34,195 nucleotides of DNA, from positions 1-34,195 of the IMG/VR virus record IMGVR_UViG_2579778804_000007. One strand, 5' to 3'. Positions 3,391-34,195 of this stretch are shown here, in pieces. Made by a program: the position numbers and the translations under genes. How positions within the stretch are numbered: the first letter of the stretch is position 1; each line of letters opens with the position of its first letter. Origin of the DNA: a virus. Taxonomy: Duplodnaviria; Heunggongvirae; Uroviricota; Caudoviricetes. The notes under the pieces were generated by a model. It was given only the letters and a program-made list of their open reading frames with translations. It was not told the origin of the DNA and searched no databases.

Positions 3391-3933
3391 TTACTCCAGC
3401 GCATCATTGACGGGTTTGAGGACCTTTTCTTCGAACCAGGTCATTTTCTCCGGTGTTTCGTCGGCCACGGTCCCGCCTTTTGCGCCGGGCGTCTGCGGCG
3501 TCTGTTTACGGCTGCTGCCGGGGGTGGCGCGTGCCTGGCGTTTTTCCGGTACGCTTCGTCTTTCGCGTAATGTGAAGCTGACCTGCCAGGCGAGGCGGTC
3601 GGTCTGTTGCTGTGCGTCTATCTGCCCGGAAAATGTCCCTTCACGAAAGTTAATGGCGGCAGCGGTGGCGTTTGCGATACGGTAAACTTTCAGGGCACCG
3701 TCCCCGGTGGTGGCAGAGGCCAGCTGGAAAATGCGCTGAAGGGCCCGCTCATTGTCAAAGGTGATCATCCCGGTTACGCGAAGCTCTTTGGCCTTGATGC
3801 CCTGCTCGGCGTTCGCGGTGCTCGATGTCTGGCCGGACTGGTCCTTTTCCTGGAACTGCATCGAGGGTGAAATCACCATGTTCTGCATGAAAATACCCTC
3901 ACCATCAAGGGCGAGCAGTGCGGTCTGGCTCAT
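3391..3933 (-). CDS. Uncharacterised tail-module protein, 180 aa (possibly gpU-like)
   Basis: Abuts the hub gene and overlaps the upstream ORF; no motif recognised. Confidence 0.35.
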   Translation of the reverse strand: MSQTALLALDGEGIFMQNMVISPSMQFQEKDQSGQTSSTANAEQGIKAKELRVTGMITFDNERALQRIFQLASATTGDGALKVYRIANATAAAINFREGTFSGQIDAQQQTDRLAWQVSFTLRERRSVPEKRQARATPGSSRKQTPQTPGAKGGTVADETPEKMTWFEEKVLKPVNDALE

Positions 3934-4630
3934 GGATCATTTTCCCCAGTTCAGTTAATGAGTCTGCCGCCAGGAGTGCGGCCACGGTATGTACGGCGGT
4001 CGGAGCCGGGATATCCTTCACCATGGCCGCCGCTGCGGCGCGGTGATACCCCCGGTACTGAAATACCCAGGCCTGCGCCTTCTGTTCTGCCAGTGTTCTG
4101 ATCCCCTCTTCCAGTCCGGCAAGTGCGCCAGCCCGTCTGCTGATAAAGCGGCTTATCTGGCTGCGAAGCCCTGCGGCATCCGGGCGTTGTGCTGCCAGCT
4201 GCCTGGCCTGTGCTGCACGGGCGGCGCTGACTGCGTTGCGCATTGTGGCAACGGAAAGATGCACAGGTGCGGGCAGGGTGTCGGTGGTGATCGGGATTTG
4301 CATTTTGTCAGTGCTCAGACTGGCGGCAGCCTGTGCCATGCGCTGTGCCTGCGTGAATACCGGCACGGGCAGAACGGCGGTCAGTGCCGCCATTGACTGT
4401 ATAAAAAGATCGTGGGTGTTTTCGGCAATCATGATAATGGTCACGTCGCCGGATGCACGGCTTCCGGCCATTTTCCCGGCCAGCCAGTTTATGGCGTTCG
4501 GAGGGCTTAAATATACCCCCGATTCTTCATATCGTCCCAGCCCGTAAGTCCACGGTGTGACGGGGATGACGGAACAGCTCAGCGGGGGCATGTCAGCGCT
4601 GACGCTGATTGTTTTTCTTGTCCACGTCAT
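3905..4630 (-). CDS. Uncharacterised late-operon protein, 241 aa, Ala-rich
   Basis: GGAGG ribosome-binding site 4 nt before ATG, directly after the fibre-assembly gene; no family recognised. Confidence 0.35.
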   Translation of the reverse strand: MTWTRKTISVSADMPPLSCSVIPVTPWTYGLGRYEESGVYLSPPNAINWLAGKMAGSRASGDVTIIMIAENTHDLFIQSMAALTAVLPVPVFTQAQRMAQAAASLSTDKMQIPITTDTLPAPVHLSVATMRNAVSAARAAQARQLAAQRPDAAGLRSQISRFISRRAGALAGLEEGIRTLAEQKAQAWVFQYRGYHRAAAAAMVKDIPAPTAVHTVAALLAADSLTELGKMIHEPDRTARP

Positions 4631-4641
4631 GGTGCCTCCGG

Positions 4642-5238
4642 TCAGCCTGCGTGATGATCCGGCGAAGGGGATTCAGGCCAGACAATATCCGGCGCGTTGC
4701 CCGTGTCTGTCCGGCTCAGTAATACCCGGTATTTTTTCCACAGGGGAAGCAGGGCGCTTTCATCGTCGGTCGCCATATTTAAATCCACGGCATCCTGAAG
4801 GATGTTTATTGTATTTGTTGCCTCCTGTATTAATTTCCGTTTTTTATTCTCTGCCTCGCTTACCCGGTAAGCCTGTTCTGCCGCTTCATCCTTAACCCAT
4901 GATGAACCGTCCCAGCGGCAGAACTCCCCGTCCGGTTTTATCATGGTCACGTTTTCCGGTAACGGGCCCGGCTCAGTAATCAGTAAGGCGCTTCCCGACT
5001 CCAGACGCCAGACGGTTTTACCCCGGTGATCTTCCATGAGGTGCCAGGTGTTTTCATCCTCATCAAAGATAGCCACGTGTCCTTCAGGAATGTCAGGCGG
5101 GGCAATGTCCGTTGAGTGCGCAGGCAGTCCGGTATGCGGAGGGATCCATGCATCGCCTTCGCCGATAAATTCATTTGTTCCGGCTGACAGGTTGTAGATT
5201 TTAATTGTCTGCGGGTGTTCGCTCATTTTAAAGGTCAT
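4642..5238 (-). CDS. Tail fibre assembly protein (Tfa / P2 gpG-like)
   Basis: 198 aa; C-terminal [18 protein letters not shown] motif typical of Tfa chaperones; directly after the tail fibre gene. Confidence 0.75.
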
Positions 5239-7280
5239 TATGCAAGCCTCACGATGTAGTTAAATGCGATGTTTTTAACGGTGTTTTCGGCATTACCGGT
5301 GGGGTTAATGGTCAGGCCGTGACCATGTGAACCCAGTGCGATCGTGTGGGCGTGTTCGCCAATGGCTACCGAATGTGTGTGCCCCGGAAGGTTTACTGTC
5401 AGGTTTGCTCCGGAACCCGGTCCGTATGCGGTCCAGTCGCCGCTGCCTTCCGGTGACGCGGTGGCGGTTCTCAGTGCTATGTTTGCAGAGCCTGAACCCG
5501 CGCTTCCTGTTGTTTTTGTGCCGTAATTGAAGGATGAGGTCGTTTTCGTGCCAAGGTTAGTGTTTGAGACGCTCCCCCCGTGGGTGTGGGATTTGATACC
5601 GTCCTGCTCCTGTGACAATACCGCACGACCGCTGGCGGGTTTCCCCTTGATTGTCCAGCCGCGCATATCCGGGATGCGACCGTTCGGATAGGCTTTTGCC
5701 AGCAGGGGGTATTGCGCTTTATCGAATGTCTGCCCCACCATGATGGCGTAACCGTCAGGCGGGGTGTCTGACGGCCACGGAAAAGGAATACCAGCCGGTA
5801 ATGCCTCAGTTGCAGGCAGTGCGCCGATGTCCTGTGGTGTGGGTTTGTTTTTATCCGTGTAAGTGCGGTACCAGATGGGTTTTCTTCCCCGATCCAGTAT
5901 CACCCCGGTAAATTGTGCCCGGTGTTCTTTTGTGGTCGGATCTGAATCTTCCAGCCCGGTGGTGATCCTGACTATTCCGCCGATGAGTTCGCCAAACACT
6001 TCAATCAGGCAGCCACCCAGGCAGATATCGCCATACCCCGTGTCAGTAAGCACGCTGTGCTGTGACAGTGAAATATTGGCCCTTAATACCCAGCTCCCCG
6101 TTCTGAATGCACCGCGCTCATTCAGCCATTCCACGAACTGTTCTGTTGTCCAGCGTTGCCCTGCTTTACCCACGTATCCGTCAGCATCATAAACCCGGGG
6201 AGCACCGATGTTGATAATAAACAATTCCTTGTTGGGGATGTCCTCACCATTGCGGTTTTTCGCAAGCCGACCATCGGCGTTGTCCATGGCGATCTTTATA
6301 GCCTTTGGCGTGGCTGCCTGTGTCTCTGATGTACTGGTGGTGGCGCTGCTTAACTGTGTGAATCCCTTTTCTTTCAGTGTTGCGTCCGGGTGGTTGCGTG
6401 ACTTCTCGTGTTTTTTCAGAGCGTCCAGACTGCGGCGCTCCTCCGGGGTTCCTGTGGGACGAAGGTCGGTTACAGTGCCTTCTGCGTTGATGTCCGCAAG
6501 GGCTGTGACATAATGCTGAATACCGTTTTCCTGGTAATCTTTCAGCGAATCGGTCACCGTGATTTTGTGCTGAACCTCCCATTCACTGGTGAGCGTGCCG
6601 GTCCAGCATACATCCAGCCAGAGGCGGGCTGGACGGCGGGGGATACTGACGGGCTGGCTGACTGCCAGTTCGGCGCGTAAGCCCTGTACGTAGCCGTAAC
6701 CCTTATTCACCGTGTAGGTGTTGCCGCTTCTGGTGATCAGCCAGCCGTCACCGAAGAATGCAGCGTTACCGTAAATATCGATGTTTTCGCGGCGCTGGCG
6801 TTCGTCCATGGATGCCAGGCGTGCCGTGAAGTCTATCTGCCAGGTCTGCGCCGGGGTGGTGATACCTGTGGCTTCCTTCGCACCGCTGTACTCCATGAGC
6901 ATGGAACGGACCAGCACATTACCTTCGTTACCGTTGTGGGTTCTGATTTTTTTCTGTGTGGGGGCGTGAACAATCATGGCCAGCGTGCTGGTTGCTTTGC
7001 TGACCAGTCCCACCCAGTTAAATTCAAAATCACCCAGCTCTGCCCCCAGGGTGACCGAATAAACCACGGCATTCTCATTCACCACGCCGGTTTTACCAAC
7101 GGCCTGGCGGTGAACAATCTGATCTTCAGGCGGCAGGATTTCGTCGGGGGATACCGGTGTTTCCGGGTTGAGGTCCGGGACGTTTGCAAAAATAAACTCA
7201 TCCAGCACGACGGGGGTGCCTTCCGCCGCCTGCTGTGCCTTGAGCCGGATAAAGGCGCTGGTAATTACAGATTTCGCCAT
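5238..7280 (-). CDS. Tail fibre protein (P2 gpH-like), 680 aa
   Basis: Conserved fibre N-terminus ([40 protein letters not shown]), Gly/Ser/Thr-rich distal region with His-rich C-terminal repeats. Confidence 0.8.
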
Positions 7281-22378: not shown

Positions 22379-22415
22379 AATGTCCTCCCCGGGATACGTG
22401 TTATCGGGAGGTAAG

Positions 22416-22679
22416 ATGCGGATTTTTAAAGCCCGGTGTCCGGACTGTGGCGCACCTGCTGTCATCCGGAAGACAGACTGGAAAACCCTTGAACTTGCGG
22501 ATCTTTACTGTGCATGCAGTGATGTCGAATGCGGGCACACCTTCGTCTGTACGATGACCTTTTCCCATACCCTCAGCCCCGGTGCCCGCTCCGGTCGCAA
22601 TATGGTGAAGTTCCTGGTGGATGCCATGCGCCCGGAAGATCGCCGGTATGCGCTTGAACTTCTGTCGCGGCGTTCCTGA
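22416..22679 (+). CDS. ogr: Ogr/Delta-family zinc-finger late-gene transcriptional activator
   Basis: CPDC-x18-YCACSDVEC cysteine pattern and downstream GHTFVCTMTF...SPG match the Ogr C-x2-C...C-x4-C finger; GGGAGG ribosome-binding site before ATG at 22416. Confidence 0.7.
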   Translation: MRIFKARCPDCGAPAVIRKTDWKTLELADLYCACSDVECGHTFVCTMTFSHTLSPGARSGRNMVKFLVDAMRPEDRRYALELLSRRS

Positions 22680-22706
22680 CGCGCTTCGCTTGTCTGCTGC
22701 TTCGCC

Positions 22707-22729
22707 GGGGCAAAAAGAATTTTTGCCCC
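22707..22729. terminator. Perfect palindromic hairpin GGGGCAAAAA-gaa-TTTTTGCCCC; bidirectional terminator between ogr and the minus-strand genes after gpA (alternatively part of cos)
   Basis: 10-bp perfect inverted repeat with 3-nt loop seen directly. Confidence 0.45.
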
Positions 22730-22773
22730 GACTCACCAGCTCCAGTGGTTCTTCATATCATTCGTTTTTTCTT

Positions 22774-22938
22774 TCAGCATACCATCCAGATAACCGCAAC
22801 GGTTGCCGCGTAAATTCTGGCGATAAAGCCCGGTGTGAAGTGTCGAAACGGGTTTTCCCACGTCAGGAATGCCATTAAAGCAATCCATGCAATGGTAAAA
22901 ATCAGCGCGCCCTTAACGGCGATAAACAGTTCGTTCAT
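22774..22938 (-). CDS. Small membrane protein, 54 aa, two predicted TM helices
   Basis: ORF MNELFIAVKGALIFTIAWIALMAFLTWENPFRHFTPGFIARIYAATVAVIWMVC with AAAGGAG 8 nt upstream; not in ORF track (under 60 aa); overlapping + strand track ORFs look spurious. Confidence 0.45.
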   Translation of the reverse strand: MNELFIAVKGALIFTIAWIALMAFLTWENPFRHFTPGFIARIYAATVAVIWMVC

Positions 22939-23011
22939 TGTGGTGTTCTCCTTTATGTGTCGGGCGAATAAACCGCGTTGCGGTGAAAAAATCAGGCGCG
23001 CCAGCGCAGCC

Positions 23012-23167
23012 TTACTGCTGACGGCGTTCCCGGAGTTCGGTCAGTGCCGCAAGTAAATTCTCCCACCACGTTTCTTCCACGACCGGGTTTTGTCGTGAAA
23101 GCAGCTGCTGTGCCGACTCAATCATTTTCTTCAGGTCTTTGTCGCTGATCCTCCTGATGTCGTTCAT
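23012..23167 (-). CDS. Small hypothetical protein, 51 aa
   Basis: Start chosen at MNDIRR with AAGGAG ribosome-binding site (track ORF 23012..23206). Confidence 0.4.
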   Translation of the reverse strand: MNDIRRISDKDLKKMIESAQQLLSRQNPVVEETWWENLLAALTELRERRQQ

Positions 23168-23214
23168 GGTGTGCTCCTTCAGTTTGCTGTTTCTGGTTAT
23201 GTTCATGGTCTTTG

Positions 23215-23619
23215 TTACCTGCGTGATTGCCTGTTGGCGGCCGAATGCACATAGCGGGCAATTGCCGCTTTTCGGTTAATCGATGCCAGTGTTCTGGTGA
23301 GTTCTGCGTTGTGTTTGTGTGCCTGCTCTTCGTGGTACTGCCGCATGATTTTTCCGGCAGGCGTGAGCGGCTCCGGCTCCCCGGGCGGACGGCGCGGACG
23401 AACGGCGACAAGCCAACTGCGGTTAGTGCTGTCCGGTCGTCCGTTGAGTATGTCGGTGATGATGGCCGTGGTGGTGCGATCGGGACTGACGACCGTGATT
23501 TCCAGCTCATCGCCAGGTTGTGGCCCCGTGGCAATGTTGTTCAGGGTCAGTAAGGGCGTGCGCTGGCGCATCAGTTCGTCAAAACGCTGTCGCTGCATGG
23601 CGCAATAAAAGCGGGTCAT
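23215..23619 (-). CDS. Hypothetical protein, 134 aa, immediately after gpA
   Basis: Start overlaps the gpA stop (coupled translation); no family recognised. Confidence 0.45.
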   Translation of the reverse strand: MTRFYCAMQRQRFDELMRQRTPLLTLNNIATGPQPGDELEITVVSPDRTTTAIITDILNGRPDSTNRSWLVAVRPRRPPGEPEPLTPAGKIMRQYHEEQAHKHNAELTRTLASINRKAAIARYVHSAANRQSRR

Positions 23620-26135
23620 TGTGGCGCCTCCGTATTCGGTGCGGGGGTGATATCAATGCGGCGGGTGCTGTCATTCCAGTACGCGGTGCGTCCGTCAGCC
23701 AGGCGCACGCGGGCACCGTGACGGACGGAAACGACGGCGCTTTCATGCAGCTGCACGCCCAGCGCATCAAGCTCACGGGTGATTTGTGCGGTGATGTGTG
23801 GCTCAGCGGTCAGAGCGATACTCACGCGAACGCCGCCAGCGGGCGCACTGATGCCGCCGTTTTTCACGGTTTCCGTGTCAGGTGGTGGGTTTTTCAGCTG
23901 CCTGGTGAGTTGTTTTCGCTCTGTGGGGGTCAGTGACCTTAACCATTCACCCAAATCACCTTCCGGCAGGGTAAGTCGCTGCTCCCTGCGTCCGTCCGGC
24001 TGCCTTTCTGGCGGGTCGTTTATGGTCAGATTCTGGTCAGGGGGACAGTTATTGCCACGAGTCCAAGGTGCGGCAAAGCCGCACTCAACGTCAAAACCCT
24101 CGTCCGTGCGGTCTTCGTTTTCCGGCTTACGTCTGACCAGTTTCCAGGTGTCCGGGTGGGTGCATATGGTGTAGCGCTCCCCGAGTGACGGGGCGCGGAC
24201 GCCGTAAATGCGTTGCGGGAATTCGCCGTAGTCGTTGGCCTCTTCGGCAGTTTCGTATGCGGTGCGGACCAGGTACGTGTTGCGGGGAATGAGCACACCA
24301 CCCTGGCGGGTGATATAGGTGGCAAAACATCCCACGTCGGCGGCGGCCAGTATGGCGTCAATGTCGTCATGGTCCAGACGCTGCGGGGCTGCCGGGTTAC
24401 GGGCCATCTGCCCGGCAAGGCGGCGGAGTTCGCGCCATACCTGGCGGGGCGGGATGCCGAAGAACTGGAACTGGTGGATGCGGTGAAGGCCTGCCCAGCC
24501 GATTGCGTTCTCCACGGTTTCGGCCATGGTTTTGCCTGATTCCTTATCGACGTAAGGTTTGCCGGTTTTCGGGTCATTCCCCATGAAGGCGCTGGCGTCC
24601 AGGTTCTTACCGATATAGGTCGCGATATAGCTTGTCGGTGTGCCTTTTGCCGGGTCGATTTTTTCGCATTTAAAACGCGGGGAGATATCATCACCCAGCT
24701 CTGCGCGGTCCTCCCTGATGGCGGCGTTGCGCATGATTTCAGTGATACGGGCTTCGTTTTCCGGGCTGGTGAATACCAGCATGTGCCAGTGCGGTGTACC
24801 GTCGTGGTGGGGCTCTACTGTGCGCACGCCGTACCAGCCCAGCCCGGCCTTGTTGATGGCCTTGCGGACGGCGGCGAAAAAGCGGTAAACCAGATAATCA
24901 CTGGCATCACGTACCGTTGCCCCGCAGTATTTCGGGTTCAGACTGCCGTCATCGTTCACGCTGTGAAAACGGGAAGGGGCTGTGACGGTGACGAAAAACG
25001 CCACGTCGCCGCGTGCTTCGGCGACCTGCTCCATTCCCCGGACGCAGGCCATCATCTCGTTACGGCGGTTACGCGGATTAGAGAGACCTGCCCAGTAGAT
25101 ATCCTCAAGGCTGAACCGTTCTCCCTCTTCGTTCTCGATGTCCCAGGCCTTCAGAAAATCGCGGGTGCGCTGGCGTTTTTCGCGCCAGTCCAGTAACGCT
25201 TCATGGCTGATATATACCGACGTCTTACGTGACACCAGGCCTGCGGCGCGTAACAGCTCTTCACGCCAGATGTCCCGGAGGTGTCTTAACTGACTGTTCC
25301 ACCATGTCGCACAGGAAAGGCGCATGACCGCACCCGGCACCTGTTCCGGGTCGGGGGCGGTGCGGCGGTCGGGCCTGATTTCCAGCGACGGCCAGCAGGG
25401 TGGCGTGATACCCAGTTTTAACGCCATGTGTGCCAGTGGCTGGTAGGTCAGTAACCAGGTGAACAGGTCATCGTCACCCCTGCCGGTCTTTTCGATGACC
25501 TCATCACATGCGCGCTCCAGTGCGGTGGAAAACGCGGTGGCGGTCAGGGTGGCAAGGCGCTGGATTTCGTCACGGCTCAGCTGCGGCAGCATAAGCAGTT
25601 CATCCAGCCGTTCGCGCGCGGCGGTGGCCTTAAAGGCCGGGGTGGCAAAGCGATCATTTACACGGGCGATACGTTTCAGGCGGGCACGCAGCCCGTGACG
25701 AACGAAGTTATCCGCCGCGTATGCGCTGTTGTTCTTAAGCCCTTCCCGGCGTGCGCTCTCCTGTTTGCGGCTCAGGCGTGCCAGGTCACGGATGAGCGGA
25801 CCGGCAAGAAACGGCGGCAGGGCGCGCAGCTCTGCCATGGCTTCAGATACCAGTGTGGGCGGATTCTCGTGTTTGTGCCGCGCCAGTTTTTCCAGTCTGA
25901 TCCGACGCTCTTCGTCGTGGTGAAGATGCGAATTAATTCGCTTGCCTTCGTCTGTGTTTGTCTGGAAGTCGACGGTCTCTTCATCCAGTCTTGCATCAAT
26001 GCGAATGTCTTCGTTGATGTAGCTCTGAATGGCCTGGCGCAATGCAGTTGGTTGCGCTCTGCCGAATGTTTCAGGATCGATAACCGGTAGCGGGGCGTTC
26101 CACGGGTACGCCAGTTGTGCATTATGGTCGCTCAT
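23616..26135 (-). CDS. A: Replication initiation endonuclease (P2 gpA family, rolling-circle HUH nuclease)
   Basis: About 840 aa; HUH motif in HHDGTPHWHMLVF; ATG at 26135 with GGGGAG ribosome-binding site (track starts at GTG 26144). Confidence 0.85.
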   Translation of the reverse strand: MSDHNAQLAYPWNAPLPVIDPETFGRAQPTALRQAIQSYINEDIRIDARLDEETVDFQTNTDEGKRINSHLHHDEERRIRLEKLARHKHENPPTLVSEAMAELRALPPFLAGPLIRDLARLSRKQESARREGLKNNSAYAADNFVRHGLRARLKRIARVNDRFATPAFKATAARERLDELLMLPQLSRDEIQRLATLTATAFSTALERACDEVIEKTGRGDDDLFTWLLTYQPLAHMALKLGITPPCWPSLEIRPDRRTAPDPEQVPGAVMRLSCATWWNSQLRHLRDIWREELLRAAGLVSRKTSVYISHEALLDWREKRQRTRDFLKAWDIENEEGERFSLEDIYWAGLSNPRNRRNEMMACVRGMEQVAEARGDVAFFVTVTAPSRFHSVNDDGSLNPKYCGATVRDASDYLVYRFFAAVRKAINKAGLGWYGVRTVEPHHDGTPHWHMLVFTSPENEARITEIMRNAAIREDRAELGDDISPRFKCEKIDPAKGTPTSYIATYIGKNLDASAFMGNDPKTGKPYVDKESGKTMAETVENAIGWAGLHRIHQFQFFGIPPRQVWRELRRLAGQMARNPAAPQRLDHDDIDAILAAADVGCFATYITRQGGVLIPRNTYLVRTAYETAEEANDYGEFPQRIYGVRAPSLGERYTICTHPDTWKLVRRKPENEDRTDEGFDVECGFAAPWTRGNNCPPDQNLTINDPPERQPDGRREQRLTLPEGDLGEWLRSLTPTERKQLTRQLKNPPPDTETVKNGGISAPAGGVRVSIALTAEPHITAQITRELDALGVQLHESAVVSVRHGARVRLADGRTAYWNDSTRRIDITPAPNTEAPQ

Positions 26136-26542
26136 GCGTCGCACTCCCCGGCAGTTGCCGCCTGAAACGCCGCGCGGTACAGCACGAGAAGGCGCTGGTA
26201 TTCACCGATAAAGTCTTCTGCGGTGTATATACCTTTCACGGCCACGCTGTGGTTTGTCATTTCCAGCACAAGCGTCATCTCTGACGACGACCAGCTGATG
26301 GCGGTGCTGTCGGTTCCGTTGATGTGAAATAAACCAAAACCATCACCTTTCACGTCCACGCGGTAACGGTCGTCAACGGTGAAGGAGAAATCCCCGTATG
26401 TGGTGACGCGTCTGGCGGCCTGTTTACAGGCGCGGCGGTAATAGTCGTGCCAGTCGTTGAGGCGGGAAGCCAGCCGGGGCTCCACTGCCCACATCCAGTT
26501 AAAAAAATCCTGAATATCTGAAAGTCCCTTAACGTTCTTCAT
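26132..26542 (-). CDS. Hypothetical early protein, 136 aa
   Basis: Overlaps gpA start by a few nt (operon coupling); no family recognised. Confidence 0.5.
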   Translation of the reverse strand: MKNVKGLSDIQDFFNWMWAVEPRLASRLNDWHDYYRRACKQAARRVTTYGDFSFTVDDRYRVDVKGDGFGLFHINGTDSTAISWSSSEMTLVLEMTNHSVAVKGIYTAEDFIGEYQRLLVLYRAAFQAATAGECDA

Positions 26543-26610
26543 GAGAACCTCCGGTAACAGACGTGCGGAAGCCTCCCGCGCACGGGTGCGGGATGGCTTC
26601 AGGATGTTGT

Positions 26611-26838
26611 TTAGTGGTGGTGTTGCTGGTTGATGAGGCTTTGCAGTTCTGCCATATCTTCGGCGAGATAGCTGAAGACAGCAGCGCAGTAACGGTTTGA
26701 TAGCGCGTGCGTGCGCTCATGCAGCATGTTGATATGCATGATTTGCGCGACGCGTGATGCGCGCCAGAGTCTGCGGTTGATTTCGGTGCGGATGTGAAGA
26801 CGCTCAGCGCGGGCGCGCTGTTGCTTGCGGTTTGCCAT
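26611..26838 (-). CDS. Small basic hypothetical protein, 75 aa
   Basis: Helical-looking basic protein; GAGG upstream of ATG. Confidence 0.45.
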   Translation of the reverse strand: MANRKQQRARAERLHIRTEINRRLWRASRVAQIMHINMLHERTHALSNRYCAAVFSYLAEDMAELQSLINQQHHH

Positions 26839-26877
26839 GACGTGGCCTCGTGTATAGTAAGTTTTGAAAACTCACCA

Positions 26878-27073
26878 TCCAGAGTTGAGAATCTCGGGGT
26901 GGCGAGACGTACGGGGTTCTCAACACCGGCTACACACGATCCCGGCCCGACCGAAGTCGGCCCCGTACGCCCCGCCATAATTCTGACGCGAAAAAGACGT
27001 GGCAATACAGTACGCACAAAAAAACCGCTGGCGCGGTTGTGCGCGTGTGTAGTCAGCGGGTTGAGAATCCCGG
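26878..27073. promoter_or_regulatory. Intergenic regulatory region: GTTGAGAATC direct repeats (about 26881 and 27060) with an inverted copy (about 26915), inverted repeat CGTACGGGG / CCCCGTACG, and a minus-strand terminator hairpin AACCGC-tgg-cGCGGTT followed by a T-run (about 27015-27045)
   Basis: Repeats and hairpin seen directly in a roughly 380-bp non-coding gap. Confidence 0.4.
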
Positions 27074-27132
27074 CACCCGTTTTATGAGGTGCAGCGGAAA
27101 TGTAACCTGACTCAACGAGCGCTGGCAAGCGG

Positions 27133-27163
27133 TTTTTGTGTTGCGTGCTGAAGTATGTATAAT
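27133..27163 (+). promoter_or_regulatory. Sigma70-like promoter (TTGTGT-N16-TATAAT) for the + strand membrane-protein gene
   Basis: Consensus -10 TATAAT at 27158-27163 with a -35-like hexamer at the right spacing, about 60 bp before the start codon. Confidence 0.45.
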
Positions 27164-27224
27164 CGCGGCGCAAAAATGGAATGCGCCGAAGGATAGCGGC
27201 GTTTATTAACAATGGAGGTTGTTT

Positions 27225-27692
27225 ATGCCTGTTGCTATGGAGCAAGCAGACAAGAAGATTTTTTTCCATCTGTGGTACAGCTACTGGCTGGAAGAGATGG
27301 TTTTCATACTCAGCAATAAAGCCGCTGCCGTGTTGCGCGCCGGGGCACTGATTGCTGCGGTATTCTCCTTTCTTCTCGTAGGTTTCCCCGTCCTGATGAG
27401 TCTTTGCGGGCTGGCGTTTTTTGTTTTTTCCTGGTTTTGCAGTAAGTTTGAGTGCGTCGCCGAATGGGCGTGCTGGCAGAAACAGAGCTACCTTCGTCTG
27501 ATTACGCAAAGGGATTTCATGAGCACTGAACGCCTCATTGAGCGCATTCTGTACCTGGAGGAAACGAACAGCGCATTCATGAAGGCGTTTGTCAGGCCCG
27601 CAAAAAACAAAGCGAGCGCATCTGTTGGTCTGTCTGCCAGCGAGCATTTGCGTTACTCCGAAAGGTTAATCTGCTGGTTGTGCGGCTTCTGA
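27225..27692 (+). CDS. Membrane protein of unknown function, 155 aa, transcribed opposite to the flanking phage genes (moron)
   Basis: GGAGG 6 nt before ATG 27225 (track ORF starts at TTG 27219); two or three hydrophobic helices and an amphipathic C-terminal region; own promoter. Confidence 0.55.
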   Translation: MPVAMEQADKKIFFHLWYSYWLEEMVFILSNKAAAVLRAGALIAAVFSFLLVGFPVLMSLCGLAFFVFSWFCSKFECVAEWACWQKQSYLRLITQRDFMSTERLIERILYLEETNSAFMKAFVRPAKNKASASVGLSASEHLRYSERLICWLCGF

Positions 27693-28016
27693 CCGGCGAA
27701 GCAGCTGCGCGACGGTTTCGCTGGCTGCCCGGTCAGACGGGTATGACACTGGCATATTCAGCTTAAGTGCCATTGCGTACTCAGCCCGTGCGCCAGCGGA
27801 CTCTTCCCATCCATCCAGTAAGTAAATGACGTCGACACACATGAGCATCGGAATACAAATGCTCATGTACTGCTGTTGGCTTAATCCGTCCGGCAACATG
27901 GCAGGGCTCAGCACAACGTGCGCGGCTGCTTCGAGCTCCGTCGCCGCTATGGAAAACGCCGTTCTGTTGTGGTCTTTGTATCCGGTCATGGGACCTGCGA
28001 TATAAATCACTGCCAT
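27666..28016 (-). CDS. DUF4406-family protein (nucleoside 2-deoxyribosyltransferase-like fold)
   Basis: MAVIYIAGPMTG N-terminus and DGWEESAGARAE motif match recalled DUF4406 consensus. Confidence 0.6.
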   Translation of the reverse strand: MAVIYIAGPMTGYKDHNRTAFSIAATELEAAAHVVLSPAMLPDGLSQQQYMSICIPMLMCVDVIYLLDGWEESAGARAEYAMALKLNMPVSYPSDRAASETVAQLLRRSEAAQPAD

Positions 28017-28225
28017 GCTTTACCTCCCGTATTGCGTGTTGCTGTCAGCACGCGTACTTCTTCCACGTTCGTGGCGCAGAAGTGCGAACCGTTGATAAGG
28101 CGGATGTGATGCATCTCAGAATTGCGTGAGTCCTGGCGTGTCATGCCCTGGTCAATCAGGCTTTCGTCGACTTCATACTGACGGTCGTTGGCTGTGAATC
28201 TGATAACGGTTGACTCCTTGATCAT
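28007..28225 (-). CDS. Hypothetical small protein, 72 aa
   Basis: ORF in operon register, overlapping neighbours by a few nt. Confidence 0.4.
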   Translation of the reverse strand: MIKESTVIRFTANDRQYEVDESLIDQGMTRQDSRNSEMHHIRLINGSHFCATNVEEVRVLTATRNTGGKAWQ

Positions 28226-28493: not shown

Positions 28494-29474
28494 TCACGTA
28501 TTGGCTGTGGCAAACATTGCGCTGTAAGTTGCATCTCCCGTTACCGGTCCGCAGTCCGGGCAGTAGCCACCGCCATGGCGACCGCAGGCGTTGCACTGTC
28601 TCAGGGTGGCGATAACCTCCGGTGCTGATTCCCGGGTTCTTGCGCCAACGCTTCGTGGTGCCTGTATGCAGTTCATCCGGTAACCCCGATAAATGCGTCG
28701 TGTTTCCGGTGTGTCGGAATTGGAGATGGTGATGCTGGTCATGCCGCCCGTTTCCTGTGAAAGGCGGTCAAGCGCTGCCCTCAGACGAACGTGCTCGCCT
28801 TCATCGAATGGTTTTCCGTAGGCGGTAAAATTGTCCCGGCCACTGAATTGCAGGTAAGGGGGATCGCAGTACACGCAAAGCGTGTTACCCATGCTGAACA
28901 GGTGGCTGGCACAGCTCAGCGTTTTTCGAAAATCGCCATGAACAAGCAGTGTTCGGGTGCTGTTTGCCTTGTCTGCAAATGCGCGGATTTCCCGTTCAGG
29001 GAAGTAGGGGGTCCGGTAGCCGCCGAAAGAAACGTTAAAGTCACCTTTTCCGTTCACCCGGTACAGGCCATTAAAGCAGTGCCGGTTGAGATACAAAAAC
29101 ATGGCGGCCAGTCGCAGTTCACGGCGGTCTCTCATTCCCGTTCTGCTACTCAGGAAGGCATGATTCTCTGCGTTAAAGGTTTCGCGAATGATGAGATAGT
29201 CACCCCTGTTGTTGTGGTTCAGGAACAGGGTTTTCGCCTCGTCGATCAGGCTGTCGGTGTTGTCCCTGGCTTGCCGGTAGAAATTAATCAGCGCACCATT
29301 GGAATCACCCAGGATGTAACGCTTGTAACTGGTGTTCATGAATACCGATGCGCCACCCACAAACGGCTCAACCAGGCAGTCTGCTTCTGGCAGATGCGCC
29401 TTCAGTGTGTTCATGATGCGACTTTTTCCGCCCACCCATTTCAGCGGCGTACCGGATAACAGTTCTTTGCTCAT
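28494..29474 (-). CDS. dam: DNA adenine methyltransferase (Dam-like) with C-terminal Cys4 zinc-ribbon extension
   Basis: DPPY catalytic motif and N-terminal SAM-binding region; C-terminal CNAC-x9-CPDC. Confidence 0.8.
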   Translation of the reverse strand: MSKELLSGTPLKWVGGKSRIMNTLKAHLPEADCLVEPFVGGASVFMNTSYKRYILGDSNGALINFYRQARDNTDSLIDEAKTLFLNHNNRGDYLIIRETFNAENHAFLSSRTGMRDRRELRLAAMFLYLNRHCFNGLYRVNGKGDFNVSFGGYRTPYFPEREIRAFADKANSTRTLLVHGDFRKTLSCASHLFSMGNTLCVYCDPPYLQFSGRDNFTAYGKPFDEGEHVRLRAALDRLSQETGGMTSITISNSDTPETRRIYRGYRMNCIQAPRSVGARTRESAPEVIATLRQCNACGRHGGGYCPDCGPVTGDATYSAMFATANT

Positions 29475-29677
29475 AACGCGGCCTCTTTGTTATAGGTTTC
29501 GTGCGTTAATAAATCCCATGACACCCCGTTGTTTTTGCTCAGCAGTCGCCAGCGAAAACCGATTCTTATTACCAGGTAGTCGTGGGGTTTTATGCGTGAA
29601 AAATTCCGCACGCCGTCGCGGAATAAACGCAGTGATGCGCGGGCTTTTCTTTCCACGTTCAGGGGGGGCAGCAACAC
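29471..29677 (-). CDS. Hypothetical small protein, 68 aa (GTG start), coupled to dam
   Basis: Stop overlaps dam ATG (ATGA); an alternative overlapping 63-aa ORF exists (29490..29681). Confidence 0.3.
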   Translation of the reverse strand: MLLPPLNVERKARASLRLFRDGVRNFSRIKPHDYLVIRIGFRWRLLSKNNGVSWDLLTHETYNKEAAL

Positions 29678-32159: not shown

Positions 32160-32684
32160 TCACCGTTCGTTTACATCCTGGCTCTGTTCCAGCTTTGACT
32201 TTCTGCCTTTGTAAACCCGTTTTCCATTGACGGTCTGGCAATCTTCCTTATCAGCCGGGGTAAACTTTCTTTTCTGGCGGTCGTATGTCCAGTAGCTTTT
32301 CCAGTTGTGCCATTCTGGTGGCTCACATTCCGGGAGTTCGTCGGCCAGCTTGTCCCACTCTCTGACGTTAAACCACCAAACACCATCCGAATTCTCATCT
32401 TCAGGGTTTGAGCGGGTTTTATGCCCTGGCATCTGGTTACGCTGAAGAGCTGCGCGTAATGCTGTTTTTGTTAATCCGATGTAGGCGGCCCCTTTTTCAA
32501 GTGAGCAAAGCCCGGCTATTGGGCCATCCAGCCGCAGGGTTGCCCCTTTTTTATATGTGCGCTGTGGCTTTTGTTCGTCGTTGTTATCTGTTGCTTCTTG
32601 TTGACTGGTATCGGCGTTGATGTACGCCGCTCCAGTTGTGTGATCGGTGTCAGATAACTCTTTATCGGCAATGAAGTCCCGCAT
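32160..32684 (-). CDS. Cox-like helix-turn-helix protein (putative excisionase / early regulator) with acidic N-terminal extension, 174 aa
   Basis: First gene of the early operon, divergent from the repressor; HTH AAYIGLTKTALRAALQRN then Trp-rich segment resembling P2 Cox; GAGAGGA ribosome-binding site. Confidence 0.45.
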   Translation of the reverse strand: MRDFIADKELSDTDHTTGAAYINADTSQQEATDNNDEQKPQRTYKKGATLRLDGPIAGLCSLEKGAAYIGLTKTALRAALQRNQMPGHKTRSNPEDENSDGVWWFNVREWDKLADELPECEPPEWHNWKSYWTYDRQKRKFTPADKEDCQTVNGKRVYKGRKSKLEQSQDVNER

Positions 32685-32785
32685 TTGTTATCCTCTCGCA
32701 CAGGTGCGCCTATTGCACCTTATGAAGGTTTGTTTTGGTTTGTTTAATGTCGAAATTACGACACTTTTGCGAGGATTTTAGTGGT
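32685..32785. promoter_or_regulatory. Immunity switch region: divergent early and repressor promoters with inverted repeat GGTGC-gcctatt-GCACC (candidate operator)
   Basis: Intergenic between divergent Cox-like and repressor genes; palindrome seen directly; promoter hexamers not confidently assigned. Confidence 0.4.
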
Positions 32786-33133
32786 ATGAATTCGACACTG
32801 TCAATAAGTATCGGTGAAAAAATCTTGATGATCCGGAAAAGTGAGAGGCTTACAAGGAAGCAATTCTTTGAGCTTACAGGGATTCCTGTTAATACGCAGA
32901 GGTATTACGAAACGGGAAGGCAAGATGGAATCGGAAGTGAGATCTTATTAAAGATCACAAAAAATTTACGTTTTAAAAAATATGCACTTTGGTTAACAAC
33001 TGATGAAACGTTTGAAGCTGGAGGTCAAATTGCCCCGGCTCTCTCTCTTGATGGATCTTCTCAGTCGGAGGGCGATCTGGCTTCAATCGACGTTACCCAA
33101 AAATCATCCCGATCAGGCCGCAATGCTGGCTGA
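32786..33133 (+). CDS. CI-type immunity repressor (XRE-family helix-turn-helix)
   Basis: HTH IRKSERLTRKQFFELTGIPVNTQRYYETGR; start at ATG 32786 (track ORF from 32735); immediately upstream of the integrase, as P2 C-int. Confidence 0.7.
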   Translation: MNSTLSISIGEKILMIRKSERLTRKQFFELTGIPVNTQRYYETGRQDGIGSEILLKITKNLRFKKYALWLTTDETFEAGGQIAPALSLDGSSQSEGDLASIDVTQKSSRSGRNAG

Positions 33134-33202
33134 CGTTACACATCGAGCGGGTTTCATCCCGCAGGGAGTGTTTGGTTAATTTATCCGTTGGAGGGGCTAA
33201 TC

Positions 33203-34195
33203 ATGTCGATTAAGCAACTCAAAGACGGACGTTATAAGGTTGATGTAAGGCCACAAGGGACGGAAGGAAAGCGGATTCGTAAGATTTTTACCCTGAAGTC
33301 AAAGGCGCAGGAGTTTGAAAGGTATGTTTTGCAGAATTTTCATGATAAGCCATGGCAGGCTAAGCCAGTAGATCAGCGTCGGTTATCCGAACTGATAGAG
33401 GCCTGGTGGTTGCTTGATGGTCGTAACCAGGATTACGGGGATACCTACAGGGTCAGACTGGAAAAGATAAACCGTGAGATGGGTGATCCTCGTGCCAGTC
33501 AGATGACGCGAAAATTTATGCTCGGGTACCGGTCCGACAAATTACAGGCCGGGTTAATGCCTTCCAGCATTAACCGCGATTTGTGTGCCTTGTCTGCAAT
33601 GTTCAGCTCGCTGATTGAGGGTGAGGTGTTCCATAACGAAAACCCGGTTCGGGGAATACGTAAGCTGAAAGTCAGGAACACAGAGATGGCCTTTCTTTCA
33701 GATGAGGAGATTGAACGACTGCTTGAACGACTCGATGGAGATGCGCGGCGTGTTGCCATTCTGTGTCTTTCCACGGGGGCAAGGTGGGGTGAAGCAGCTG
33801 GTTTACGTGGGGAACATATTGTAGGTAACCGCGTGATGTTCTTTAACACCAAGAACGGAAAATCTCGTGCCGTTCCCGTTTCTGATGCGGTACTTGCGTT
33901 AATTAAAACCCGCAGAACCGGATTGTTGTACCAGGCTGATTACCTCAGATTTCGGGAGATCCTTCAGGAGGTGAAGCCGGACTTGCCGAAAGGGCAGGCC
34001 ACCCATGTCATGCGTCATACATTCGCTACACATTTCATGATGAATGGCGGAAATATCGTTACGCTACAACGAATCCTGGGCCATGCCACGATTCAACAAA
34101 CGATGACGTATGCGCATTTTTCGCCGGACTTTTTACAGGATGCAATCAGCTTTAATCCGCTGGCTGAAAGTGTCCATAAACTGTCCATCGATTAG
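33203..34195 (+). CDS. int: Tyrosine site-specific integrase (P2 Int-like)
   Basis: C-terminal catalytic motifs HVMRHTFATH and LGHATIQQTMTYAHF; GGAGGGG ribosome-binding site before ATG 33203; stop codon at 34193-34195, the last bases of the window. Confidence 0.9.
   Translation: MSIKQLKDGRYKVDVRPQGTEGKRIRKIFTLKSKAQEFERYVLQNFHDKPWQAKPVDQRRLSELIEAWWLLDGRNQDYGDTYRVRLEKINREMGDPRASQMTRKFMLGYRSDKLQAGLMPSSINRDLCALSAMFSSLIEGEVFHNENPVRGIRKLKVRNTEMAFLSDEEIERLLERLDGDARRVAILCLSTGARWGEAAGLRGEHIVGNRVMFFNTKNGKSRAVPVSDAVLALIKTRRTGLLYQADYLRFREILQEVKPDLPKGQATHVMRHTFATHFMMNGGNIVTLQRILGHATIQQTMTYAHFSPDFLQDAISFNPLAESVHKLSID

Follow-up and report, generated by a model that had tools for sequence, protein, structure and literature searches.

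We analysed a 34,195-nt stretch of viral DNA, the IMG/VR record IMGVR_UViG_2579778804_000007 taken at its full length (the window), which is a P88-like (Xuanwuvirus) prophage of the P2 family and carries among its early genes a single gene that points the other way. This open reading frame (ORF) encodes a 155-aa protein on the + strand of a ~9-kb minus-strand early operon that runs from a Cox-like gene to the replication endonuclease gene gpA, and is the sole + strand gene there that does not shadow a minus-strand gene. Our comparative analysis suggests that it is most likely a phage-exclusion gene, and we give about an even chance to the more specific reading that its product is a stand-alone SLATT-like inner-membrane effector of exclusion, carried as a moron and expressed by the prophage from a promoter of its own. 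An initial annotation of the window, made from the letters alone, had described an opposite-strand membrane protein with the architecture of a lysogen-expressed accessory gene (superinfection exclusion, abortive infection or conversion), and the ORF does lie within the minus-strand operon as described there.

In all 11 copies examined, which represent two diverged alleles, the + frame is the only one that is fully open. Differences between copies favour the third codon position (10/12/27 and 26/16/48 over the three positions), the ratio of nonsynonymous to synonymous substitution rates (dN/dS, Nei-Gojobori) for the allele copies is 0.07–0.22, and the protein is kept at 20–40% identity in Yersinia, Salmonella and other prophages, Mu-like ones included, where the antisense frames are unrelated. 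The GGAGG ribosome-binding site reported earlier is present as a Shine-Dalgarno (SD) sequence 6 nt 5′ of an ATG; a mechanical ORF list opens the frame at a TTG (27219), and the start used by PGAP in E. coli prophages, where it calls the same coding sequence (CDS; WP_251279877.1 and WP_074568453.1), is the ATG with the SD. Because it is the sole open frame in all alleles, with a low dN/dS, a third-position bias and PGAP calls, the ORF is a real gene, and the coding call stands well above chance.

The initial annotation had itself pointed to an overlapping 372-codon minus-strand frame (26529–27647) as the gene that might be real instead. If this were the case the + ORF would be spurious, a possibility to which we attach next to no weight. 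The minus frame is long and open, its residues 182–273 show a sub-threshold match to Pfam Phage_ASH (23.6 bits, cut-off 26), and an 'ash family protein' or antisense ORFs are annotated at such sites in some public records. However, the frame crosses two RNA genes, C4 (76.8 bits) and isrK (61.8 bits), both above their Rfam gathering scores, and overlaps in another reading frame the gene for a 75-aa 'derepression protein' (PF25738). Moreover, the Phage_ASH match coincides exactly with the two RNA genes, substitutions track the codon positions of the + frame, and the protein conserved in Yersinia, Salmonella and Mu-like prophages is that of the + strand, the minus frames there being unrelated. 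We rejected the 372-codon frame as an antisense shadow that happens to be nearly free of stops. The Phage_ASH match lies at 26829–27104 of the window, where 'ash family protein' is annotated in PV468777.1 and NZ_CP060950.1; the Phage_ASH family may in part be a model of translated RNA genes, and our mapping corrects these public calls by placing them on RNA genes.

The product is predicted to be an inner-membrane protein with a tight two-transmembrane (2TM) hairpin and both termini in the cytoplasm. The hydrophobic helices noted earlier form one block of 40 residues (34–73) that is broken by G53-F-P55 into two transmembrane (TM) helices, leaving a periplasmic loop of only ~4 residues, and hydropathy and an AlphaFold2 model give the same topology. 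The model, made from a 30-sequence alignment, has a pLDDT of 86.2 (~92 over the hairpin) and a pTM of 0.77, with helices at residues 2–50, 55–94, 101–113, 120–134 and 144–153 and a 4-residue turn between the first two. Conserved features are a YSYxLE motif and an RR pair before TM1, Q..Y..L after TM2, and further E.DS, PA..RA and a C-terminal AGG(I)P-like motif.

No family had been recognised for this protein in the initial annotation, and lone-protein scans of Pfam, PADLOC and NCBIfam likewise yield nothing, but it does match phrog_6315, a family listed as of unknown function (E 1.9e-29, residues 9–155 against profile positions 4–149 of 152), as does the second allele (E 5.9e-65). A profile search of 1.84 billion cluster representatives returned 41 clusters at E ≤ 1e-3, nearly all of them full-length proteins of 150–175 aa, and a further indexed search added members from gut phages, Methylococcus and Aromatoleum. 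Alignments of the diverse family hold no conserved stretch of 7–10 residues, and a profile search of genome contigs with one family alignment found no relative. At the family level, similarity to SLATT proteins emerges: 17 of 37 members match NCBIfam SLATT_4 (best E 2.2e-5) and seven match SLATT_1, any other family being matched by three members at most, and one member is publicly named 'SLATT family 5'. The family consensus matches SLATT_4 at E 6.1e-7 (residues 33–116 against model positions 34–134 of 154) and, all in register, SLATT_1 (5.8e-4), SLATT_5 (1.2e-3) and SLATT_6 (0.019). The PADLOC models for the CBASS '2TM effector' and for 'RTasSLATT' are matched at 1e-4 to 3e-3, and Pfam SLATT_5 at E 0.0022 (17.8 bits, cut-off 29.5). 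In a Foldseek search of BFVD, SLATT proteins make up six of the top nine and seven of the top 21 matches (TM-scores 0.35–0.69, E-values 0.05–0.7); Foldseek and sequence-profile searches of the PDB gave generic helical hairpins and designed proteins only. The family appears remotely SLATT-like, a divergent and stand-alone one that we file outside any defined SLATT subfamily because its scores lie under the curated cut-offs and partner genes are missing.

SLATT proteins (SMODS- and SLOG-associating 2TM effectors: NCBIfam SLATT_1/4/5/6, Pfam SLATT_3/4/5, the CBASS '2TM' effectors and the SLATT_5 partner of the DRT10/UG17 reverse transcriptases, RTs) are of similar size (~150–190 aa), have the same succession of N-terminal helix, tight 2TM hairpin and cytoplasmic helical tail, and like the phrog_6315 family are found on mobile elements and prophages. 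Unlike SLATT systems, the phrog_6315 gene is single, has no dedicated noncoding RNA conserved next to it, has putative transcription signals of its own and lies antisense to phage operons. SLATT proteins are predicted pore-forming effectors of the CBASS and DRT defence systems (10.64898/2026.04.29.721553), and cell suicide is the presumed effect of TM effectors in defence systems (PMC9122126). The remote SLATT-type 2TM similarity favours an abortive-infection or exclusion reading over one of lysogenic conversion.

The genomic evidence points to an accessory gene, as had been proposed. Homology to P88 stops right after TTGTGT, near 27141, and the ORF recurs in E. coli 100181 (97% DNA identity) beside another right-hand neighbour (MarR), with homology ending at 27705, 13 nt past the stop; strain 100181 and E. 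coli O103:H2 12009 have the cassette at 91–97% identity. The cassette so delimited is absent from P88 and from all four E. coli relatives sampled across the match ranking, in which a minus-strand gene abuts isrK with no + gene and homology likewise breaks off after the TTGTGT hexamer. Among 5,426 complete E. coli genomes the window allele occurs in 12 and the second allele in 25, whereas the C4/isrK module matches 1,181, and ~97% of the close prophages with the same RNA module lack the cassette. The proteins of the two alleles are 39% identical between flanks that are ~90% identical in DNA (E. coli SW070917 and others); they part within the promoter spacer and the divergence extends as far as the stop codon, the allele of locus L003 replacing ~27151–27692. 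In the samples examined the insertion site is either empty or occupied by a phrog_6315-type gene.

Elsewhere the family behaves in the same manner. In a Yersinia P2-like phage (Firavirus) a member is flanked by gpB and a small early gene, both of which run on the opposite strand; the Salmonella LT2 prophage Fels-2 and a 186-like relative have theirs between fil and DUF5347, again antisense; and in two Mu-like prophages (L022 and L023, both 6001–6462) it lies antisense between the terminase large subunit gene and either DUF1804 or small late genes. Another prophage fragment and a short contig each carry a member that is antisense to both neighbours, and in lambdoid elements members stand at divergent or module junctions. 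A scan of seven other contexts detected neither C4 nor isrK near family members. Because these are lone genes with no conserved neighbour, and C4/isrK is absent from those seven contexts, the cassette has, on comparative grounds, the architecture of a moron that moves between temperate-phage backbones, a horizontally shuffled single gene. The presence/absence pattern, the varied right-hand neighbours and the lone antisense genes in unrelated temperate backbones all support the accessory architecture.

Several of these contexts deserve a remark of their own. In Yersinia phage vB_YenM_42.18 the annotated gene vBYenM4218_008 (4803–5468, 221 aa) is an antisense shadow of an unannotated family member at 4992–5459, and in Fels-2 the annotated STM2733.1 (3414–3818) similarly shadows an unannotated member at 3501–3959, so that in both genomes public annotation is corrected in favour of a conserved gene. 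One of the Mu-like prophages (L023) has an extra co-oriented 56-aa ORF (5817–5987) just upstream of its member, a possible partner there. In a lambdoid prophage (L029, 6001–8798) the member lies in a terminase-portal insertion together with a 231-aa gene, a 68-aa gene and a gene for a WYL-domain protein; this insertion may be a small defence islet.

P2-family phages are known for cargo of this kind, and the cassette resembles the classical P2 lysogenic-conversion genes old, tin and fun/Z and the contents of the gpA-gpQ hotspot (Rousset et al. 2022, PMC9122126) in being accessory, variable between collinear genomes and expected to act against competitors. The known defence hotspot of P2-like phages spans the interval from gpA to the capsid/portal genes (PMC9122126), whereas the cassette sits inside the early operon beside isrK/C4, at a site that in the samples examined is not multi-cargo and that goes unmentioned in two P2-hotspot papers. 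In the window the hotspot stretch itself (~22400–23620) holds only small ORFs (134 and 138 aa) without a Pfam match.

Expression in the lysogen would depend on signals in the 5′ part of the cassette. The TTGTGT-N16-TATAAT promoter proposed earlier is there to the letter and at the spacing given; its −35 falls in an invariant flank common to the isrK upstream region, and its −10 occupies the same position in both diverged alleles, as TATAAT or TAGAAT. The cassette is directly upstream of, and divergent from, the promoter-like site of isrK-C4. In a lysogen the early promoter would be repressed and the cassette transcribed from its own promoter; the isrK/C4 promoter in the same intergenic region would have to be active in lysogens for C4 to keep the antirepressor off, which would leave the region plausibly open to transcription. 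The 5′ untranslated region (UTR) contains two short hairpins within 27164–27205 (GGCGCA/TGCGCC and CGCCG/CGGCG), the second of which, read on the minus strand (27201..27184), is a weak terminator-like site just upstream of the isrK promoter and could curb the passage of early-operon transcription into the immunity module.

It might be the transcription of the cassette, rather than its protein, that matters, with convergent or antisense transcription from its promoter insulating the isrK-C4-antirepressor module from residual early-operon read-through in lysogens. The geometry suits such a role, as the ORF lies squarely between the early genes on one side and the immunity RNA promoter on the other and converges on the early operon with a 27-nt overlap and no + strand terminator until ~28033. 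Nevertheless, we consider it very unlikely, since strong purifying selection on the protein (the dN/dS given above) contradicts a role at the RNA level, the protein family is conserved to 20–30% identity across unrelated contexts, and most relatives do without the cassette. A dependence of the ORF on the C4/isrK module was likewise rejected: the seven other contexts have no such RNAs and allele type does not follow C4 immunity type. Inspection of the ORF's own mRNA revealed no complementarity to C4.

For the preferred reading, that of a SLATT-like exclusion effector, we propose the following model. In the uninfected lysogen the protein would rest inactive in the membrane. Upon infection by another phage its cytoplasmic helical parts would sense a phage product or a perturbation of the membrane and the protein would oligomerise, and the oligomer would permeabilise or depolarise the inner membrane so that the infection is aborted. 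Once the prophage itself is induced, early transcription running strongly against the gene through the cassette would silence it. The presence of 39%-identity alleles within near-identical flanks would fit arms-race diversification. In outline this recalls SieB of P22 and lambda, also a small prophage inner-membrane protein transcribed apart from the lytic operons, presumed to be made in the lysogen and, like the present protein, a candidate for aborting heterologous phages. The two differ in that only one of two family consensus sequences matches SieB (PF14163; E 0.0068, 16.4 bits, cut-off 26) and the window protein does not match it, and in that the 155-aa gene gives no evidence of an internal-start, Esc-type self-immunity product.

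If instead the protein blocks entry, it would stop the DNA translocation of incoming phages without killing the cell, as a superinfection-exclusion factor like T4 Imm, HK97 gp15 and P22 SieA, which are likewise small membrane proteins of a resident phage that protect against superinfection. The moron architecture and inner-membrane location suit an entry block equally, which requires no partner sensor; allelic diversification would fit a protein that directly touches other phages' injection machinery, and the weak SieB match of the family consensus can be cited here too, though SieB is itself of the abortive type. We nonetheless regard an entry block as unlikely, while leaving it some real weight. 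With a loop of ~4 residues almost nothing is exposed in the periplasm for an arriving tail tip to meet, what is conserved in the protein is its cytoplasmic helices, and the SLATT effectors, to which its remote similarity is strongest, are tied to cell-killing responses. No sequence or profile similarity to Imm, gp15 or SieA was found.

A role outside defence strikes us as rather unlikely, whether it served the phage itself (through lysis timing, induction or lysogeny) or the physiology of the host (through its envelope, as in lysogenic conversion). In the window the ORF and the immunity RNA promoter have a common control region, in Mu-like prophages the family gene lies near lysis and terminase modules, and 2TM hairpin proteins include holin- and antiholin-like factors. 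On the other hand, the great majority of close prophages with the same RNA module manage without the gene, its position varies with the type of phage and shows no link to C4/isrK elsewhere, the lysis and late genes that surround it are on the opposite strand, and no similarity to a holin family was found.

Several results weigh against the effector reading. The profile searches that had been called for show SLATT similarity at the family level only: the window protein alone finds nothing meaningful in Pfam, PADLOC or NCBIfam and no SLATT match, PADLOC does not recognise it as a defence system, all SLATT matches are under curated cut-offs (the consensus scores 29.4 bits against 55 for NF033632, SLATT_4), and the Foldseek E-values from BFVD are not significant. 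Known SLATT proteins act together with a sensing partner (cyclase, SLOG or RT), whereas the phrog_6315 family has no conserved one; in ~10 distinct contexts there is no conserved neighbour and no cyclase, SLOG, TIR or RT partner, the neighbours being ordinary phage genes on the other strand. The proposed −35 agrees with TTGACA at three of six positions, when the 160 nt upstream are shuffled an equally good promoter site arises in 21 of 200 cases, so that the motif alone is not above chance, and a consensus promoter scan does not list the site. Most other family members have no convincing sigma-70 site upstream, and no intrinsic terminator follows the ORF on the + strand (27692–28033). GC content is only mildly atypical (50.6% versus 55.8%), a weak signal of foreign DNA. 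In the literature (Fels-2 locus tags, prophage transcriptomics) we found no data on lysogen expression of the cassette or of the Fels-2 homologue, nor any functional data on stand-alone SLATT proteins. Finally, nothing here separates abortive infection from simple entry exclusion or a role outside defence.

A bolder form of the same proposal, which we put forward only tentatively and think improbable as a whole, is that the protein is the first stand-alone SLATT-type immune protein, one polypeptide of 155 residues that senses infection with its conserved cytoplasmic helices and perforates the membrane without a nucleotide-signalling or RT partner, spread as an antisense moron by P2-, 186-, Mu- and lambda-like phages, and here maybe switched on only while C4 immunity is on, via the shared divergent promoter region. 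If the effector reading is true, this minimal partner-less SLATT-like protein would offer a simple model for SLATT activation and membrane action, both of which are explicitly unresolved for DRT10 (10.64898/2026.04.29.721553). It would also mean that a defence gene is missed by PADLOC, Pfam and NCBIfam and that P2-family prophages carry defence cargo outside the gpA-gpQ hotspot. If it is wrong, the gene simply encodes another small membrane protein of a prophage, its role unknown.

The module next to the cassette, at 26838–27128 on the minus strand, has what we take to be the architecture of the P1/P7 immI region (c4-icd-ant). Because of this match, isrK in the window would by analogy be the leader of the C4 precursor, and C4 would block translation of an antirepressor-like protein. 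C4 contains the segments a′ (CGUGUGUAG) and b′ (GUUGAGAA), and isrK the target sites b1 (UUCUCAAC) and a1 (CUACACACG). Both a′ and b′ are complementary to these isrK sites as well as to sites b2 and a2 in the 59-nt leader of the derepression gene, where a2 overlaps the SD sequence. In two loci of other immunity types (L001 and L003) a′ and b′ differ and most of the targets change in compensation, the a′-a2 match of L003 being only partial. This covariation implies that the types are heteroimmune and that an antirepressor-like protein is repressed at the level of translation.

Table. Positions of the ORF, its cassette and neighbouring features in the window.
Feature	Position	Strand	Basis or remark
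CDS of the 155-aa protein (phrog_6315; remotely SLATT-like)	27225–27692	+	ATG 27225, stop 27690–27692
Predicted two-TM hairpin, residues 34–73, turn G53-F-P55	27324–27443	+	Kyte-Doolittle 19-residue means 2.0–2.4; AlphaFold2
5′ UTR with two short GC hairpins and SD GGAGG (27214–27218)	27164–27224	+	sequence
Promoter-like site: TTGTGT 27136–27141, 16-nt spacer, TATAAT 27158–27163	27136–27163	+	sequence
Inserted cassette (−10, structured 5′ UTR, ORF, ~13 nt past stop; ~560 bp)	~27142–27705	+	homology breakpoints
Promoter-like site for isrK/C4, TTGCCA-N18-TACATT	27099–27128	-	back-to-back with the −35 of the ORF; region invariant in 8 loci
isrK-family RNA: leader with C4 target sites a1, b1 and intrinsic terminator	27018–27092	-	Rfam 61.8 bits; outside cassette
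C4 antisense RNA	26895–26982	-	Rfam 76.8 bits; outside cassette
Gene for 75-aa 'derepression protein' (PF25738)	26611–26838	-	C4 target site overlaps SD; outside cassette
gpA replication endonuclease	23616–26144	-	early operon end
DUF4406 gene, convergent neighbour of the 155-aa ORF	27666–28016	-	3′ end overlaps ORF by 27 nt
Dam methylase	28494–29474	-	early operon
Cox-like gene	32160–32684	-	early operon start
Small putative repressor	32735–33133	+	beyond early operon, facing operon
Integrase	33188–34195	+	beyond early operon, facing operon

The early operon of the window continues from the Cox-like gene through DUF4761, a 3′-5′ exonuclease, Dam methylase, two small genes, DUF4406, the derepression gene and a 136-aa gene to gpA. 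Between the exonuclease and Dam methylase genes lies a 68-aa ORF (29471–29677, minus strand) beside which no obvious antitoxin partner was noted, and whose counterparts in L001 and L003 RefSeq calls 'ParE family toxin-like protein'.

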